32,035 nucleotides of DNA. It comes from a virus (Duplodnaviria; Heunggongvirae; Uroviricota; Caudoviricetes). The notes beneath the pieces are model-generated. The model was given only the letters and a program-made list of their open reading frames with translations, made no database searches and was not told the DNA's origin. How positions within the stretch are numbered: the stretch's first letter is position 1; the number at the start of each line of letters is the position of its first letter. Made by a program: the position numbers and the translations under genes. The stretch spans positions 1 through 32,035 of the IMG/VR virus record IMGVR_UViG_2690316263_000015; one strand, 5' to 3'. Below are positions 25,232-31,996 of the stretch, piece after piece.

Positions 25232-26059
25232 ATGCATCGTATAGACACGAAAACCGCGCAGAAGGATAAGTTCGGCGCGGGTAAGAACGGTTTTACCCGT
25301 GGTAACCCCCAGACTGGCACGCCTGCCACCGATCTGGATGATGACTACTTTGACATGTTGCAGGAAGAACTTTGTAGCGTGGTGGAGGCATCCGGTGCCA
25401 GTCTGGAGAAGGCGCGGCACGACCAGCTGCTTACCGCGCTTCGTGCGCTGCTGTTAAGCCGCAAGAATCCGTTTGGCGATATCAAATCGGATGGCACGGT
25501 GAAAACGGCTCTCGAAAACCTTGGTTTGGGAGAAGGTTCAGCATTACCCGTTGGCGTGCCTGTTCCGTGGCCTTCCGCCACTCCGCCAACAGGCTGGCTG
25601 AAATGCAACGGTGCCGCTTTTTCTGCAGAAGAATACCCGGAACTGGCAAAGGCTTACCCGACCAATAAATTGCCTGATTTACGCGGTGAATTTATTCGTG
25701 GCTGGGATGATGGACGTGGAGTGGATGCGGGGCGAGCCTTGCTAAGTCTTCAGGATGACTCTTTTGAAGCTCACAGACATGAGTCCTTTTTTTACGCGGG
25801 TATTTCACGCAATGAAACACCATTAAAAAATCTTCCAAGTTCAGACGAGATGCTGACTTTAAGTTCCACAACTAATGCCTTGTCCCCGGACAGTATTGAT
25901 GCCACCAATTCGTTAATTGGTAATGATGATTACAACTGTCTGATTGAAGGAAATAAAAATAACAAACGAACGGCAACGGGGTTGAGTACCAGTATTGTCG
26001 GTGCAGCAGAGACACGCCCACGTAATATTTCATTTAATTACATTGTGAGGGCTGCATGA
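25232..26059 (+). CDS. tail fibre protein: constant N-terminal part fused to the currently expressed variable C-terminal part with a tail-collar-like receptor-binding region
   Basis: ATG 25232 after GGAG. N-terminus [29 protein letters not shown] typical of Mu S / side-tail-fibre N-termini; collar-like motif [33 protein letters not shown]; crossover site inside the gene at 25509-25534. Confidence 0.8.
25509..25534. repeat. left recombination site of invertible segment (hix/gix-like, 26 bp)
   Basis: CTCTCGAAAACC-TT-GGTTTGGGAGAA resembles Hin/Gin crossover sites and is an imperfect inverted repeat of 27459-27484. Confidence 0.6.
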
Positions 26060-26661
26060 TGTATAACGCCATCTTAAATAATAAATTTATTGCCACAAAG
26101 GCAGGAGAGATTACCGTTTATAACTATGACAGTGAGACACGGGAGTATATTTCTGCATCAATTGAATATCTTGCTGTGGGTGTCGGTATCCCCGCATATT
26201 CCTGTTTAGATGCTCCTGGCACACATAAGGTTGGTTATGCAATCTGCCGTTCGGCAGATTTAAACTCATGGGAATATGTGCCAGACCATCGCGGTGAAGT
26301 TGTCTATAACACCGAAACGGGAGAATCAAAAGAAATCACAGCTCCGTGTGATTACCCTGAAAATACAACCACTATCGTCCCGTTAACGCCATACGATAAA
26401 TGGGATGGTGAGAAATGGGTGACAGATACTGAGGCACAGCATAGTGCCGCAGTAGACGCGGCAGAAGCACAGCGCCAGTCGCTGATTGATGCTGCAATGG
26501 CTTCCATCAGTCTGATTCAACTGAAATTACAGGCCGGGCGGAAGCTGACGCAGGCAGAAACAACCCGACTTAACGCCGTGCTGGATTACATTGACGCGGT
26601 GACGGTAACAGATACCAGCACCGCGCCGGATGTCATCTGGCCTGAACTGCCGGAGGCGTAG
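26056..26661 (+). CDS. tail fibre assembly protein (Tfa)
   Basis: 201 aa, ATGA-coupled to the fibre gene; the C-terminal region ([62 protein letters not shown]) is a typical Tfa chaperone domain. Confidence 0.75.
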
Positions 26662-27076
26662 GCCATTCAATATCGGGGGCTGTTGAAGTATCAACACGCA
26701 TCAGCAGCACACGGTATTTCTTCCATTGGGTGAGAGTTGAAGTTTCTTCATCAGTTGCAATGCCCGCATCAACAGCATCCTGACGCCAGGATATTTCACT
26801 GTCAGCTTTTGCACGAAATGTGGCTTTCATGTTTTCTGCATCTGATATTTTCTGTTCTGGTGAAAGCGGCGGCTCATCAACCCATGCAAGGGCCCCTGAA
26901 ACCATTCCCAGCATTTTTCCTGTTGGCTTATTTCCCCCATTAAATCTGACAGCATCCTCATCGCTGATTTCAATACCATCCTGCGGCCATGTCCCCTCCT
27001 TGATATAACTTTCGTATAGCGCTGCGTTGTAGATTGCATTTTCGGAAGGGCTGTAAACACTTTTAACTTTATTCAT
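26633..27076 (-). CDS. alternative tail fibre assembly protein (Tfa')
   Basis: 147 aa on the minus strand; the C-terminal region (SPEQKISDAENMKATFRAKADSEISWRQDAVDAGIATDEETSTLTQWKKYRVLLMRVD) parallels the Tfa chaperone domain. SD GGGAGA upstream of ATG. Convergent with tfa, 3' ends overlapping 26633-26661. Confidence 0.7.
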   Translation of the reverse strand: MNKVKSVYSPSENAIYNAALYESYIKEGTWPQDGIEISDEDAVRFNGGNKPTGKMLGMVSGALAWVDEPPLSPEQKISDAENMKATFRAKADSEISWRQDAVDAGIATDEETSTLTQWKKYRVLLMRVDTSTAPDIEWPTPPAVQAR

Positions 27077-27080
27077 TCTG

Positions 27081-27458
27081 TTATCTCCCTTTCGCTATAT
27101 AGCAAAGATTAAACCCACCGCTACCTGACATACGGGCTGTAAAACCCGTTCTTGAAGTACCAGTTGAGTTAACTCCATAAGCAGGCATGGTTGTTGGAGA
27201 AAGCAGAGACTCCTGGATATCTGCCATTGTCAGTGTAATTGATTCGACCCGCGCGGGGAAAGGTAGCGGGAAAACAACATTCGTCCCTGTCTGTCCAACG
27301 GGGAAACCGAAAATACCCCATTGTGTAATTACCCCATCCGGCCCCTTACTCCATCCAGATTTAGGATTCGGCCAGTCTGCTGCTCCAGAGTGCCCCGTTG
27401 TAAAACTACTCATATCTGGTACTTGCCCGGTATCCGTTCCGACGTTCCTCGTTGCCGC
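27081..27458 (-). CDS. alternative promoterless tail-fibre C-terminal segment (Sv'-like), expressed only after inversion
   Basis: Minus-strand frame is open from the right crossover site to TAA (27081-27083), 4 nt before tfa'; it shares the crossover-encoded GLGE junction with the fibre gene. The N-terminal 'MMPFARY' part of the ORF-track call lies across the recombination site and is probably not coding. Confidence 0.6.
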   Translation of the reverse strand, partial: AATRNVGTDTGQVPDMSSFTTGHSGAADWPNPKSGWSKGPDGVITQWGIFGFPVGQTGTNVVFPLPFPARVESITLTMADIQESLLSPTTMPAYGVNSTGTSRTGFTARMSGSGGFNLCYIAKGR

Positions 27459-27484
27459 TTCTCCCAAACCAACGTTTATGAAAA
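27459..27484. repeat. right recombination site of invertible segment (hix/gix-like, inverted)
   Basis: Its reverse complement TTTTCATAAACG-TT-GGTTTGGGAGAA matches the left site over the GGTTTGGGAGAA half-site and the central TT. Confidence 0.6.
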
Positions 27485-27538
27485 TGCAGAAATAACGAGC
27501 AAATGGCATCATTCCTGCTTTTGTCAGGGGGATCTACC

Positions 27539-27667
27539 ATGCTTATTGGCTATGTACGCGTATCAACAAATGACCAGAACACAGATCTACAACGTAATGC
27601 GCTGAACTGTGCAGGATGCGAGCTGATTTTTGAAAACAAGATAAGCGGTACAAAGTCCGAGACCTAG
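27539..27667 (+). pseudogene. Pin/Gin/Hin-family serine DNA invertase, truncated after about 40 codons
   Basis: MLIGYVRVSTNDQNTDLQRNALNCAGCELIFENKISGT matches the invertase N-terminus nearly residue for residue (catalytic Ser in VRVSTNDQ), then diverges (KSET) and stops at TAG 27665-27667. The remainder of the gene is absent from the window. Confidence 0.8.
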
Positions 27668-27714
27668 GGCTGACATTGCTGTTCTTGATGCAAATTAAAG
27701 TATTTAATAGTGAG

Positions 27715-27742
27715 TAGCGGCCTTACTAAGGTAAGGCCGCTA
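27715..27742. other. perfect 12-bp stem hairpin at the prophage/islet junction (possible bidirectional terminator or recombination scar)
   Basis: TAGCGGCCTTAC-taag-GTAAGGCCGCTA; lies between the invertase remnant and the 3' end of the minus-strand DUF262 gene; no clean T-run on either side. Confidence 0.35.
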
Positions 27743-27762
27743 TAATCATTTTATTAATTGCA

Positions 27763-29712
27763 TTAATCGTGTTTTGGCCATACTTTCAATGCAATTTCCC
27801 CCAACTTTTTACCCCGCTCCAGGATTTCATCCTCATCCCATTTATCCTTAACTATAAGTGGAATGTTCAGTCGTAGATTGGTGTGGACGATGAGAGCATC
27901 ACGTTTTTTCAGAAATACAGCATTCTGAACAGAACGGTTTACGCTAAGGTTAAGCAAAGTTAGATTTCCCAAAGTAGCTATCGCTTGTTGCCGTTTCCTT
28001 ACCAGTAGCTGTTCAGGGGTAAGATCGGTTCCAGACAGAACAATTTGGTTCAATACCGTAGCATCTGAATTTGTCACCATACGACCATTTTCGAGAGGCC
28101 AACAGGAATACCAACTTTGGGGCATAAGATGATCGATATCGAGATTAGAAAGATTTGGAACATCAGGCTTTTCGGTCTTCACTTGGCGACAAAGTTCTCT
28201 TTCAAGTTCCGTTAACATTGAGCGCATTTTCGGTGCGTCGAGCCTGCCAGGATAAAGTGGAGCATTGATGCAAGCGTTGAGAAATTCTGAGTCACCAGGC
28301 CAACGTGAGGCTTCGCCATTTAAGTTATTGAGGATATTACGTAACTCAACACTGGAAATTTCCGTTTTAGCCAAGTGCCGCAATACATTCATAAATACAT
28401 TGTTGTAATTCTTTGGCGTCAGGCCACATACGGCTCTTCGTACTACGTAGGAGACAAGATCATTATACATGACTGCTTTCTCATCATCAGCGATGTTAGC
28501 TATCGAAATGAACAAAGCAAGCGGATAAAGTGTCGTCACATCATAGTCTGCGATGCGATATCCAAAGTGTGAGATGGGGGTTGTGCCAAAACCATCAACC
28601 AATTCTTTATATTGTAATGCATATTGTTTGAGGCGCTTTACTTGCAGATCTGCTCGTTGTGAAGACAAGTCCTTACTTACATAATCACGATACTCATTGT
28701 AAAGACGAGACAGATCAATTTCACGCTGCCTTTCTGATTGCAATGTCGCATGTACTAGCCACTCCATGCGTGGTTTATTAATACGTCCACGGCGTTGTTT
28801 TTCCGACCAGTATTTATCTTCAAAGCTCTTCCACTCATTTTCATATAATTCAATAGCATTAATATTTTCATGCTCTGCGCACATAAAGATATAGTTGCGA
28901 ATAAGATCCGTAGCATGAAGTTCCGCCCCTCGCCCATTTAATGTTTCAAAAATTATTTGGGCATCATCTTCAGCTTCGAGAAATATGCTTACCAGTTTCA
29001 GATCTGTTAAGACAGCCTCAATTAGAGCTACAGCATTTTCTTGTGGTGAGTGGTTTTCTATTTTAATCCATTTTATAAAGGCTTTAGTAAAAAAACATAA
29101 TGCTTCTAGTGATGGCGGGTGATTAAAACGCTTACGCAACGTACCATGCTGCGTGAAACTATCAGAGAATACGTCCCGGAGATCGTCAATCTTTTCAACA
29201 TTAAAACTTTGAATAAAATGAGTTTGATCCCGAAAAGTTGGCCACAGTTTGAAGCGTTCTACTTCTTTATTTCGCATTGTGTCTTCGTTTGAGTTTTTCA
29301 GGCAAGGCGAAATGAGAGCCTCTAAGCTGGAAAGATCCGTAGCACGTAATGCTAATCGGATGGATGCCAGAACATATTGAAGAGTGGTCAATCGTTGCTG
29401 ACCATCAATAATATGTATGGAATCTACACCTAATAATCCTTTTTTTGATTGAGGTTCCAGTACAACCGCACCAAGGAAATGGGGAGTTGGTTTTGTACCC
29501 GAGAGCCGGGATTGTGCTTTCTCTAGGATATCCTCCAGTAGAGCTGACCATTGGTCTTGCTGAGTCCATACATAGGCACGTTGATAGAATGGAACACAGT
29601 ATTGTCGGCGGTCTTGAAAAAGTTGTTGGACAGTTAGCGTCTCGGATTTCATGGTATACCTGTAAGCGACATTGTACAAAAGTGAGGAGTTAATCTGATT
29701 TAGAACAATCAT
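27763..29712 (-). CDS. DUF262-DUF1524 nuclease, GmrSD-like (type IV modification-dependent restriction candidate)
   Basis: 649-aa minus-strand ORF. N-terminal DUF262 motifs (FYQRAYVWTQ, IIDGQQRLTTL, FETLNGRGAELHATDLIRNY) and C-terminal DUF1524 His-Me finger (DIDHLMPQSW, GNLTLLNLSVNRSVQN). Likely true start at internal ATG 29652 (MKSETL). Gene is AT-rich. Confidence 0.8.
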   Translation of the reverse strand: MIVLNQINSSLLYNVAYRYTMKSETLTVQQLFQDRRQYCVPFYQRAYVWTQQDQWSALLEDILEKAQSRLSGTKPTPHFLGAVVLEPQSKKGLLGVDSIHIIDGQQRLTTLQYVLASIRLALRATDLSSLEALISPCLKNSNEDTMRNKEVERFKLWPTFRDQTHFIQSFNVEKIDDLRDVFSDSFTQHGTLRKRFNHPPSLEALCFFTKAFIKWIKIENHSPQENAVALIEAVLTDLKLVSIFLEAEDDAQIIFETLNGRGAELHATDLIRNYIFMCAEHENINAIELYENEWKSFEDKYWSEKQRRGRINKPRMEWLVHATLQSERQREIDLSRLYNEYRDYVSKDLSSQRADLQVKRLKQYALQYKELVDGFGTTPISHFGYRIADYDVTTLYPLALFISIANIADDEKAVMYNDLVSYVVRRAVCGLTPKNYNNVFMNVLRHLAKTEISSVELRNILNNLNGEASRWPGDSEFLNACINAPLYPGRLDAPKMRSMLTELERELCRQVKTEKPDVPNLSNLDIDHLMPQSWYSCWPLENGRMVTNSDATVLNQIVLSGTDLTPEQLLVRKRQQAIATLGNLTLLNLSVNRSVQNAVFLKKRDALIVHTNLRLNIPLIVKDKWDEDEILERGKKLGEIALKVWPKHD

Positions 29713-30495
29713 TTTATTCTGCTATGATACAACGTATTTGTTACCGGTTAAGTAAAAAACGCGTCTGAACGCTGACGTTTTAGGGCTTTACTGGTTATTC
29801 TTTCTTATCTCTTCATCATCCCATCGGCATCCTGTCGAGGTTGTTGACTTGTTGTTATTTATTTTGTCTAGGCGCTGTTTAATTATTATTGATAGAACTG
29901 ATGGTGAGAGGTGATTGAAATTGTAGGCACGTCGTTTGCAAGGACGTGCTACGACTGGCTGGTGAACTTCCGATAGTGCGAGTATTGAATGATTTCCTAC
30001 GTGCTAACTAGTGAACAAACAACTCTTCAGTAGACTCTCAGGTATCATTCAGAGTTTCCTGAACGAAAGTTTTAGCTCAATCTTTATCTGCAGTATGTCT
30101 AACTGAAAAACTATCGTTGCTGGTGGCTTTTACGATCATCTCCACATCGTCATAACGCTTGCCAATGTGTTGGGTTAACTCTTCCTTTAACGCGTCCACA
30201 GCGCCATTTGGCATTTGGTCATTTTGTCTTTGGTTATGGAGATCTCAATACGCATAACACTTCTTTTGTACTGCGTTTGTAGACAGTATTATTCTTATCT
30301 GTGTAAATAAACAGTATCAAGACTTCGTTTTAGCTGCATAAGAAAAAAGAGATGGATACATTCGGAAAGATTTTGATGGTGGTAGGCTAAGTGAATAGCC
30401 TAAAGGTGTTTTACCCCAATTATTCCCCGGTATTTCTCCGCATAAAAAACAATCATAAAAAACCAGCCATAATAGGCTGGTTCTTAAGGGATTTT

Positions 30496-30544
30496 TGGTC
30501 GCACGAGAGGATTTGAACCTCCGACCCCCGACACCCCATGATGG
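30496..30544 (-). other. orphan 3' fragment of a tRNA-Pro gene (about 49 nt, T-arm and acceptor 3' strand with CCA); not a complete tRNA
   Basis: Minus-strand reading CATCATGGGGTGTCGGGGGTCGGAGGTTCAAATCCTCTCGTGCGACCA matches, from recall, the 3' part of enterobacterial tRNA-Pro (proM-like). No matching 5' acceptor strand or D-arm upstream. Confidence 0.6.
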
Positions 30545-31465
30545 TTATGATAGACCGTAGTATTTTTTCAGAGCCGCTGTAGCTGCTTGAGTTGCAGCAG
30601 CTATTCCTATGCCCAAAGTACCATGGGCTGCTTTACTCGCAATATTTGCCAACCATTTACTAACAGATTGACCATATTCACCACGTTTGTTAGCTATCGG
30701 GCCATCTTCACCAATAGCAATTTCTAAATCGTTAACATCAGATTTAGGGAACCCCTGAGCTGAGAGAAACTCTTTTAATGACTCAGTGTCGTTTTTTACG
30801 ACGTGGTTATTCACAGAAAATGAGTTTTCATTTCCGAAGTTTATGACAGTATTGTCTCCAAAAATTGAGTTATGGAATAATGAAGACGTGTCGATATTTT
30901 TAAGTTTTTCTGTCATGTTTTTCTCATCTGGTATTTCAGAAACTTGATCAGAAAGTTCAAGTATAAAATCAAGTAGCCGTGACCTGACCTGAGTTAAGAT
31001 GGAAGTAAAGTTATGTAGTGCGATCTCTTTATAACAGCGTGTTAACTCATAGCCTTTATCGATACCTTTGCAGTACTTAACTAACGCGTAATCTAAAGGA
31101 ATTGGCTGCTGAAGAGCATGGCTATCACCAGCATTGGTTACTAGTTCTTCGATTTGACTGATTGAAAGCCTCACATTACTGGTTGTAGCATCTTCATAGT
31201 CATCTTCACTTAGATAGCCAATCGGTAACGGAAAAGCTCTATATAGGCGAACGCCGTTGTTCAGATCTGCAAGAATTCTTGTGCCAACAATTCTATAATC
31301 TGGAAGGGAAACTGAATCAGGATAACCGTTTATCTCATGATTTACCCATGCAGCAAGCTCCTTTTTCCCGATAGAGAAAAGAAGGATCTTCGTTTTTATG
31401 AGAGCATTTGTTGTGCCTTCATCACCAGTACTTAGTATCTGAATGATTTCTTGCAGTTGGTTCAT
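30545..31465 (-). CDS. abortive-infection-like protein (AbiTii-type N-terminal domain suspected)
   Basis: 306-aa minus-strand ORF. N-terminus (LQEIIQILSTGDEGTTNALIKTKILLFSIGKKELAAWVNHEINGY) resembles AbiTii-domain proteins as I recall them; C-terminus has an Ala/Gly-rich amphipathic tail. AT-rich. Family call unverified. Confidence 0.45.
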   Translation of the reverse strand: MNQLQEIIQILSTGDEGTTNALIKTKILLFSIGKKELAAWVNHEINGYPDSVSLPDYRIVGTRILADLNNGVRLYRAFPLPIGYLSEDDYEDATTSNVRLSISQIEELVTNAGDSHALQQPIPLDYALVKYCKGIDKGYELTRCYKEIALHNFTSILTQVRSRLLDFILELSDQVSEIPDEKNMTEKLKNIDTSSLFHNSIFGDNTVINFGNENSFSVNNHVVKNDTESLKEFLSAQGFPKSDVNDLEIAIGEDGPIANKRGEYGQSVSKWLANIASKAAHGTLGIGIAAATQAATAALKKYYGLS

Positions 31466-31479
31466 ATGTCTTATCCCAT

Positions 31480-31505
31480 AAAAAAAGCCCGCATTAGCGG
31501 GCTTT
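31480..31505 (-). terminator. intrinsic terminator on the minus strand downstream of ssrA
   Basis: Minus-strand GCCCGC-taat-GCGGGC followed by T7; about 130 nt beyond the tmRNA 3' CCA and 14 nt before the Abi-like ATG. Confidence 0.55.
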
Positions 31506-31633
31506 CATGTAACTAAAGAGCCGCGGCTCCTTTGCGTATCCTTTTTTGTCCCCTCACCGTCTGGTCGGTGTCCTGCTGAGACTGCTAACTTCCTGTTTTT
31601 ATTGGTGTTGTCCTTACACCGTCCAATCATGAT

Positions 31634-31996
31634 TGGTGGAGCTGGCGGGAGTTGAACCCGCGTCCGAAATTCCTACATCCTCGGTACTACATGCTTAGTC
31701 AGTCTTTACATTCGCTTGCCAGCTGCGGACGGACACGCCACTAACAAACTAGCCTGATTAAGTTTTAACGCTTCAACCCCAGGCAGGGCTTCCACGCGAT
31801 CTCTTTTGGGTTTGACCTCTCTTGATCCCCGTCCTAAGAGCGGAGGCTAGGGAGAGAGGGCTCTAAGCAGGTTATTAAGCTGCTAAAGCGTAGTTTTCGT
31901 CGTTTGCGACTATTTTTTGCGGCTTTTTACGAGGCCAACCGCCCCTCGGCATGCACCTTGGGTTTCGCAAATCCCGTCGAATCCAGAATCAGCCCC
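31634..31996 (-). ncRNA. ssrA: tmRNA (transfer-messenger RNA, SsrA)
   Basis: Reverse complement reads GGGGCTGATTCTGGATTCGACGGG ... GGACGCGGGTTCAACTCCCGCCAGCTCCACCA, 363 nt, with the tag reading frame GCAAACGACGAAAACTACGCTTTAGCAGCTTAA (ANDENYALAA) at 31875-31907. Confidence 0.95.

Follow-up and report, generated by a model that had tools for sequence, protein, structure and literature searches.

A Pin-type fibre switch in an ssrA prophage whose invertase gene is interrupted by a GmrSD gene may still be flipped in trans

Does the loss of a prophage's own tail-fibre invertase lock its fibre switch? The question is raised by a 32,035-nt stretch of viral DNA (hereafter the window), in which a Pin-type serine invertase gene stops after about 40 codons beside an otherwise complete fibre switch. 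The window covers the late region, or right arm, of an e14/SfV-like prophage at ssrA with an HK97-type head and a Mu-type contractile tail. It carries genes for terminase, portal, HK97-type capsid, sheath, tape measure, baseplate and fibre, each of them open. In the literature, no specific description of the switch of this ssrA prophage was found.

The remnant of the invertase gene, pin', lies on the plus strand at 27539-27667. It runs from the ATG at 27539 to the TAG at 27665-27667, comprising 42 codons with the product MLIGYVRVSTNDQNTDLQRNALNCAGCELIFENKISGTKSET. In Pfam, the product hits the N-terminal domain of Resolvase at E = 4e-8 over profile positions 2-47 of 145; it is 93% identical to PinE residues 1-44 and contains the nucleophilic-serine motif Y-x-R-V-S-T-x-x-Q as VRVST, reading MLIGYVRVSTNDQ. 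The stub DNA is near-identical to intact 184-aa pinE genes through 27660 (codon 41) in an alignment that included Z0117EC0148 and DP051, and the interval 27458-27660 is 98.0% identical to EC052. Past 27660, a stretch of ~28 nt retains weak similarity (17/29 matching positions, ~59%), in which a 1-nt indel creates the TAG; no alignment to intact pinE follows. An intact 184-aa invertase gene occupies the equivalent position in the related prophages EC052 and Z0117EC0148. When intact PinE was searched against the whole 32-kb window by tblastn, the stub was the only match (E = 3e-23, the rest E > 7). The best value for PinE residues 45-184 was E = 7, and the C-terminal helix-turn-helix DNA-binding domain is absent. 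With 41 homologous codons left, the stub also lacks a complete ~140-aa catalytic domain with its oligomerisation helix. Judged from its sequence, the invertase encoded by the stub gene is certainly non-functional.

These ORF, Pfam, alignment and tblastn data bear out the original prediction, which described an invertase gene broken off after about 40 codons at these coordinates, with a near-perfect Pin/Gin/Hin N-terminus including the catalytic serine. It had also placed the end of the ORF at the start of an AT-rich islet, in agreement with a GC content of 0.55-0.60 in the structural genes and 0.35-0.44 from ~27600 to 31500. The comparison with related prophages that it proposed gave intact pinE in EC052, Z0117EC0148 and DP051, with the homology of the stub ending at 27660. 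The truncation itself is not new, as RefSeq already lists a partial recombinase; the RefSeq/PGAP label on the homologous stub is "recombinase family protein, incomplete, missing C-terminus".

The term "cut off", used in the original prediction, describes the gene only in part. The gene is truncated, but its interior has been exchanged for a GmrSD cassette, and its 3' tip and terminator persist 2.2 kb downstream. Homology to intact pinE loci ends at 27660 and restarts at ~29903-29908. Alignment with the pinE 3' ends of EC052 and Z0117EC0148 identified the surviving 3' tip and the pin terminator hairpin at 29903-29950 on the plus strand. The tip, GGTGAGAGGTGATTGA (29903-29918), consists of the last pinE codons and the stop, amounting to ~15 nt of the gene, with the stop-codon equivalent at 29916-29918. 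After the terminator hairpin (29926-29950) comes sequence that is found downstream of pinE in EC052. The gap in pinE homology thus indicates that ~420 bp of the pin interior (codons ~42-180) was replaced by a cassette of ~2.25 kb on the minus strand (27661-29902), comprising a GmrSD gene together with the upstream region and the terminator that belong to it.

The cassette gene (27763-29652, minus strand) encodes a 629-aa GmrSD-family type IV, modification-dependent restriction enzyme, with Pfam matches to GmrSD_N (3e-34) and GmrSD_C (5e-20). The PADLOC mREase_IV model, for type IV methyl-directed restriction enzymes, covers residues 1-629 of 629 with 1405 bits. The single GmrSD polypeptide is predicted to join an N-terminal DUF262 domain (ParB/Srx-like NTPase) to a C-terminal DUF1524 domain (HNH-type nuclease). 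A terminator scan located a hairpin terminator with a 13-bp stem (27714-27743) between the stub and the GmrSD 3' end, and the fold of 27700-27762 has an energy of -31.3 kcal/mol (z = -7.9). The whole GmrSD gene is nested within the remains of pin, with the 5' stub on one side and the 3' tip and terminator on the other. Outside E. coli, one GmrSD homologue (77% identical) was found, in another enterobacterium and without pin flanks, which is too sparse a record for donor tracing. Its lack of pin flanks shows that the gene exists independently and was captured at pin. Identity is low along the fringes of both junctions, which suggests that the cassette may have come already inside a more divergent invertase gene, and that the 5' stub was perhaps homogenised by recombination after the cassette had arrived.

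To define carriers of the pin'-GmrSD junction, we required at least 80% coverage of 27486-27900. By this threshold the junction is present in 288 of 5426 complete E. coli genomes, among them UTI89, S88, IHE3034, APEC O1, NU14 and the type strain ATCC 11775. A sequencing or assembly artefact, or the rest of pin lying in frame nearby, had been named at the outset as what would speak against a genuine truncation. Both have a negligible probability, since the same junction recurs in 288 complete genomes from many laboratories, and since tblastn detected no further PinE segment in the window, where the last ~15 nt and the terminator lie 2.2 kb downstream. No isolated phage in the phage collection carries the junction, and related phages have an intact invertase. 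In GPEC1189 (L009), the pin'-GmrSD module resides in a prophage next to paoD, a chromosomal site other than ssrA. In PRO_A-2576-6M-A_ESBL (L006), it is likewise next to paoD, with a shorter stub whose match to the window starts at 27593 and which adjoins an integrase fragment of a lambdoid prophage. From these sequences, the module has moved between prophages or sites.

What remains of the switch in cis? Two inverted 26-bp crossover sites are present. The left site (25509-25534) reads CTCTCGAAAACC TT GGTTTGGGAGAA and is identified by repeat search, by identity with e14 and by the inversion joints of related genomes, which fall at this site. The right site (27459-27484) reads TTCTCCCAAACC AA CGTTTATGAAAA and was located by repeat search and a five-sequence alignment of stub-bearing and intact-pinE loci, across which it is invariant. 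In reverse complement, the right site becomes TTTTCATAAACG-TT-GGTTTGGGAGAA, and the TT cores of the two sites match in orientation. The inner half and core of the left site are identical to the e14 P-segment repeat TTGGTTTGGGAGAAGG (repeat as given in PMC12529663). The shared 15-mer TTGGTTTGGGAGAAG has exactly two copies in the window, inverted with respect to each other (25521-25535 and 27458-27472), against 0.08 expected by chance. The perfect inverted repeat measures 15-16 bp, or 20 bp at 95% identity.

The sites enclose an invertible segment of ~1.95 kb from core to core (25523-27470), which holds two convergent cassettes, each with a fibre C-terminus and a tfa gene. In GPEC1189 and EC052 the segment, 97.9-98.8% identical, has the opposite orientation with respect to both flanks, and the same cassette pair occurs in 8 genomes at 98-99%. 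In the current orientation, the tail-fibre gene (25232-26059, plus strand, 275 aa; Pfam Collar 1.6e-15, PHROGs tail fibre) combines a constant N-terminal part of ~100 aa (25232-25520) with a collar-type variable C-terminus within the segment. This currently expressed fibre is served by a tfaE-like tail fibre assembly gene (26056-26661, plus strand, 201 aa; Pfam Caudo_TAP 1.6e-30). The alternative, gp53-like fibre C-terminus (27081-27470, minus strand; Pfam Gp53-like_C 1.4e-10, PHROGs tail fibre) is silent in this orientation and is accompanied by its own tail fibre assembly gene (26633-27076, minus strand, 147 aa; Pfam Caudo_TAP 7.1e-33). Inversion of the segment in silico yields an in-frame gp53-like fibre of 226 aa followed by its own 147-aa Tfa. 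The length of 226 aa equals that of the annotated 681-bp gp53-like gene of GPEC1189, where the segment is flipped. Both the crossover sites and the alternative fibre and tfa cassettes, the latter all open, are therefore intact, as originally predicted.

At the centre of the invertible segment, the 3' ends of the convergent tfa genes share 29 bp (26633-26661). Receptor-binding regions of both cassettes (25727-26030 and 26693-27451) vary among lineages that share the flanks, the stub and the islet (the window, SFE8/WP2 and UTI89). On this sequence comparison, the contents of the fibre cassettes are exchanged between lineages independently of inversion.

A further cis element deserves consideration, as DNA invertases of the Pin/Gin/Hin family require a Fis-bound enhancer in cis. 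From the crossover centre, the stub runs on for 188 bp. Within it are two G-N13-C 15-mers, at 27560-27574 and 27609-27623, at distances of 95.5 and 144.5 bp from that centre; they are weak as Fis motifs and have a CGTAATGCG stretch between them. This part of the stub should be the counterpart of the enhancer region of hin. In Hin, the enhancer measures 65 bp and is ~100 bp away from hixL (PMC3798978), the Fis sites of Mu are within the gin coding region (PMC3378877), and the title of Kahmann et al. 1985 refers to a stimulatory site within the invertase gene. Because the enhancer is in the 5' coding region of invertase genes of this family, the equivalent DNA would be inside the stub and thus spared by the deletion. 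By homology and spacing, we infer that a Fis-dependent recombinational enhancer may be retained at 27560-27623. With ~5% divergence over 64 bp, a conservation test for selection on the stub has no statistical power.

Does the segment still invert? We compared its orientation among genomes with the same truncation. Between UTI89 and IHE3034, the flanks are 100% identical over 5292 and 7346 bp, including the stub and GmrSD, and the segment is inverted. Aligned in inverted orientation over 1939 bp, the two segments differ at just two positions, one per crossover site. Both differences lie in the outer half of the site, which remains with the flank on inversion; the inversion joints fall inside TTGGTTTGGGAGAAG. 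WP2-S18-ESBL-07 and SFE8 also carry the segment in opposite orientations, and their right flanks match at 100% identity over 7579 bp. The window and GPEC1189 share the same two cassettes (98%) and the same stub, and are inverted exactly at 25516-25535 and 27458-27477. Across the 288 carriers, at least 68 are flipped relative to the window, with the collar-type cassette adjoining pin', and a further 133 have the UTI89/window-type arrangement. Four UTI89 assemblies have a single orientation.

The presence of an identical stub in near-identical genome pairs of opposite orientation indicates that inversion has occurred repeatedly after the truncation. As a general statement, the claim that the truncation leaves the fibre switch locked is thus not supported, given three same-stub pairs in opposite orientations and at least 68 of 288 flipped carriers. 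The qualified form of the claim, in which the switch is locked unless an invertase acts in trans, fares better: the hedge about trans action fits the second invertase copies of some carriers, described below, and what lacks support is unconditional locking. A truncated recombinase in one genome does not establish a locked switch, and here the population record contradicts it.

We then propose that the locus is an orphaned Pin-type switch, which has lost its own recombinase and whose segment is still flipped in trans by other invertases when they are present. We give this reading a probability of roughly 70%. In this model, a GmrSD cassette on the opposite strand replaced pin codons ~42-180, leaving the 41-codon 5' stub, ~15 nt of the 3' end and the terminator. 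All cis parts survive, namely both 26-bp sites, both fibre/tfa cassettes and, putatively, the Fis enhancer. The segment would then be an orphan substrate, unable to flip by itself. A compatible serine invertase from another prophage, a plasmid or an infecting phage could flip it in trans, and otherwise it would stay frozen.

One alternative is that the switch is truly locked, with the segment frozen and the differences in orientation either predating the truncation or reflecting imported flipped copies. That the invertase is certainly non-functional, that in many carriers no chromosomal paralogue of the PinE or PinQ type could be detected, and that the four UTI89 assemblies share one orientation would all fit. 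It is nevertheless unlikely, because members of the ST95-type group combine an identical junction, 100% identical flanks and an identical segment with opposite orientations, and two other lineages also contain opposite orientations. Orientation differences older than the truncation would call for independent identical truncations, which are implausible. Given the identical flanks and segments, importing a flipped donor copy by recombination is less parsimonious than inversion in situ, as the segment alone would have to be brought in, flipped and otherwise unchanged. The action of PinQ on the e14 P segment, moreover, is a precedent for inversion in trans.

Flipping could also result from general RecA-dependent recombination between the short inverted repeats, with no invertase involved. 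The joints do fall within the sole sequence common to both segment ends, and some flipped genomes have no detected invertase paralogue. However, efficient RecA recombination in E. coli needs ~23-27 bp of homology. The perfect repeat of 15-16 bp (or 20 bp at 95%) is below this minimum, which favours site-specific exchange, and flips have nonetheless occurred in three lineages and at least 68 of 288 genomes. These repeats are, in addition, genuine Pin crossover sites that match those of e14 exactly. We therefore regard the RecA route as very improbable. Site-specific exchange by a Pin-like enzyme acting in trans would be the economical explanation of the flips.

Which enzymes could flip the orphaned switch? 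Gin, Cin, Pin and Hin are functionally interchangeable by cross-complementation, which has long been known, as have pseudogenised pin genes. PinQ of the Qin prophage, 38% identical to PinE, inverts the e14 P segment, as does PinE (Kirigo et al. 2025, PMC12529663). Chromosomal paralogues were searched for at the DNA level by chimeric queries, each joining a carrier-specific anchor to the missing part of pinE or to K-12 pinQ. These queries revealed one extra PinE-like place in UTI89, IHE3034, NU14 and APEC O18, and an extra PinQ-like place in S88. No second PinE-like or PinQ-like copy was found on the chromosome at the DNA level in PMV-1, ATCC 11775, ZJ3920 and many other carriers. PMV-1 is in the flipped state although no such copy was detected on its chromosome, and its flipping enzyme may be transient, plasmid-borne or too divergent for detection. 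Among the listed ST95-type genomes, the PinE-like second place is found in 8 of 11 flipped genomes and in 9 of the 28 genomes with the UTI89 orientation (Fisher p = 0.03, with phylogeny ignored). The lambdoid prophage at icd of UTI89 contains no invertase in the 85 kb inspected. With a paralogue in some carriers and none detected in others, whether the switch can operate is set by what else the genome encodes. At present it is probably frozen in some strains, and it may be locked in individual strains.

The closest known kind is the e14 P segment with PinE of K-12, grouped with the G/Gin and C/Cin switches of Mu and P1. The window and e14 share genes of the same prophage family (a ymfQ-like baseplate gene, stf/tfa cassettes and pinE), and their crossover repeat is identical, TTGGTTTGGGAGAAG(G). 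They also share the layout, with a constant fibre N-terminus, a segment of two convergent fibre/tfa cassettes and an invertase outside the right site. Unlike e14, a 15-kb remnant at icd, the window prophage is structurally complete and lies at ssrA, and a GmrSD gene has taken the place of its invertase gene, of which 41 codons and the 3' tip are left. The action of PinQ on e14, in which the invertase of one prophage flips the segment of another through the same repeats, resembles what we propose for the window locus. The K-12 target prophage, however, keeps its own PinE, whereas the resident enzyme of the window prophage is gone, so that inversion here would rely wholly on foreign enzymes.

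Another decayed Pin-type gene, the pinH pseudogene of K-12 (b2648; L011 13066-13305), occupies the same ssrA-glaH interval and has the same relative strand. Being 68% identical to PinE residues 38-94, it begins about where the stub ends (codon 41). This correspondence could be a coincidence, or it could mark a shared fragile or recombination point in pin. Unlike the stub, pinH is an internal fragment without sites, cassettes or a 5' stub, and no DNA-level similarity was detected between pinH and 27401-30100 of the window.

These observations do not overturn existing knowledge. The gene is an ordinary pseudogene, and each part of the locus has known counterparts: the invertase pseudogene, the invertible segment left orphaned and the defence hotspot at the prophage end. 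What the locus adds is a switch whose cis parts are probably still usable by the invertases of other mobile elements, and a natural example of a defence gene, GmrSD, gained at the expense of the phage's own host-range recombinase. It also offers a natural system for measuring the cross-talk of prophage invertases, in carriers that include well-studied ExPEC strains (UTI89, S88, IHE3034, APEC O1 and the E. coli type strain). One may speculate further that the stub is kept for its Fis enhancer, with inversion outsourced to invertases that arrive with a co-resident or superinfecting phage or a plasmid, an idea that we consider quite doubtful. When the e14 P segment flips, the chimeric fibre that results blocks the adsorption of T2 (Kirigo et al. 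2025, PMC12529663). If the outsourcing idea were true, an orphan switch beside GmrSD and AbiTii could constitute an infection-triggered change of surface or defence state.

At the right-hand end of the prophage, ssrA (tmRNA; 31634-31996, minus strand; identified by ARAGORN) marks the chromosomal attachment end, with an att-like repeat at 31481-31675. In UTI89, a 185-bp, 91%-identical direct-repeat copy of this att-like region, comprising the ssrA 3' end and downstream sequence, lies beyond the integrase end of the prophage. The UTI89 copies (L001 13852-14036 and L008 31136-31314) bound the whole element. As the UTI89 repeat is three genes beyond the integrase, the prophage may belong to a composite island. 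Within the window no copy of the ssrA 3' end was found; the other end of the element is beyond the window's left edge.

The interval between pin' and ssrA in the window contains GmrSD, a DinI-like remnant and an AbiTii-domain gene (30545-31465, minus strand; Pfam AbiTii 3e-33, PADLOC AbiTii), the last being variable cargo just inside the ssrA-side end. In UTI89, GmrSD and the DinI remnant are joined in this interval by a GIY-YIG gene and two hypothetical genes, and the sequence re-converges with the window at 31481. In relatives with intact pinE, other cargo follows pin, namely a GIY-YIG gene, a restriction-modification pair or other genes. These differences indicate that the stub borders a variable defence-cargo hotspot at the prophage end. 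As in other prophage-end defence hotspots of the moron or cargo type, GmrSD, the DinI remnant and AbiTii sit in the interval from the last tail gene to the attachment site, and cargo is exchanged between otherwise near-identical prophages. Unlike in those hotspots, one cargo gene is nested in a phage gene, pin, which it destroyed, rather than placed between genes.

The ssrA-side cargo has been swapped (window 30545-31480 versus UTI89 L001 11115-13851) between elements that are otherwise 98-99% identical. The AbiTii version is found in the window, WP2 and SFE8, and the version with the GIY-YIG gene and two hypothetical genes in UTI89 and IHE3034. The DinI-like pseudogene occupies ~30038-30255 on the minus strand. 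Homologous loci are annotated as frameshifted with an internal stop, and in the window only a 45-aa ORF (30077-30214) is still open.
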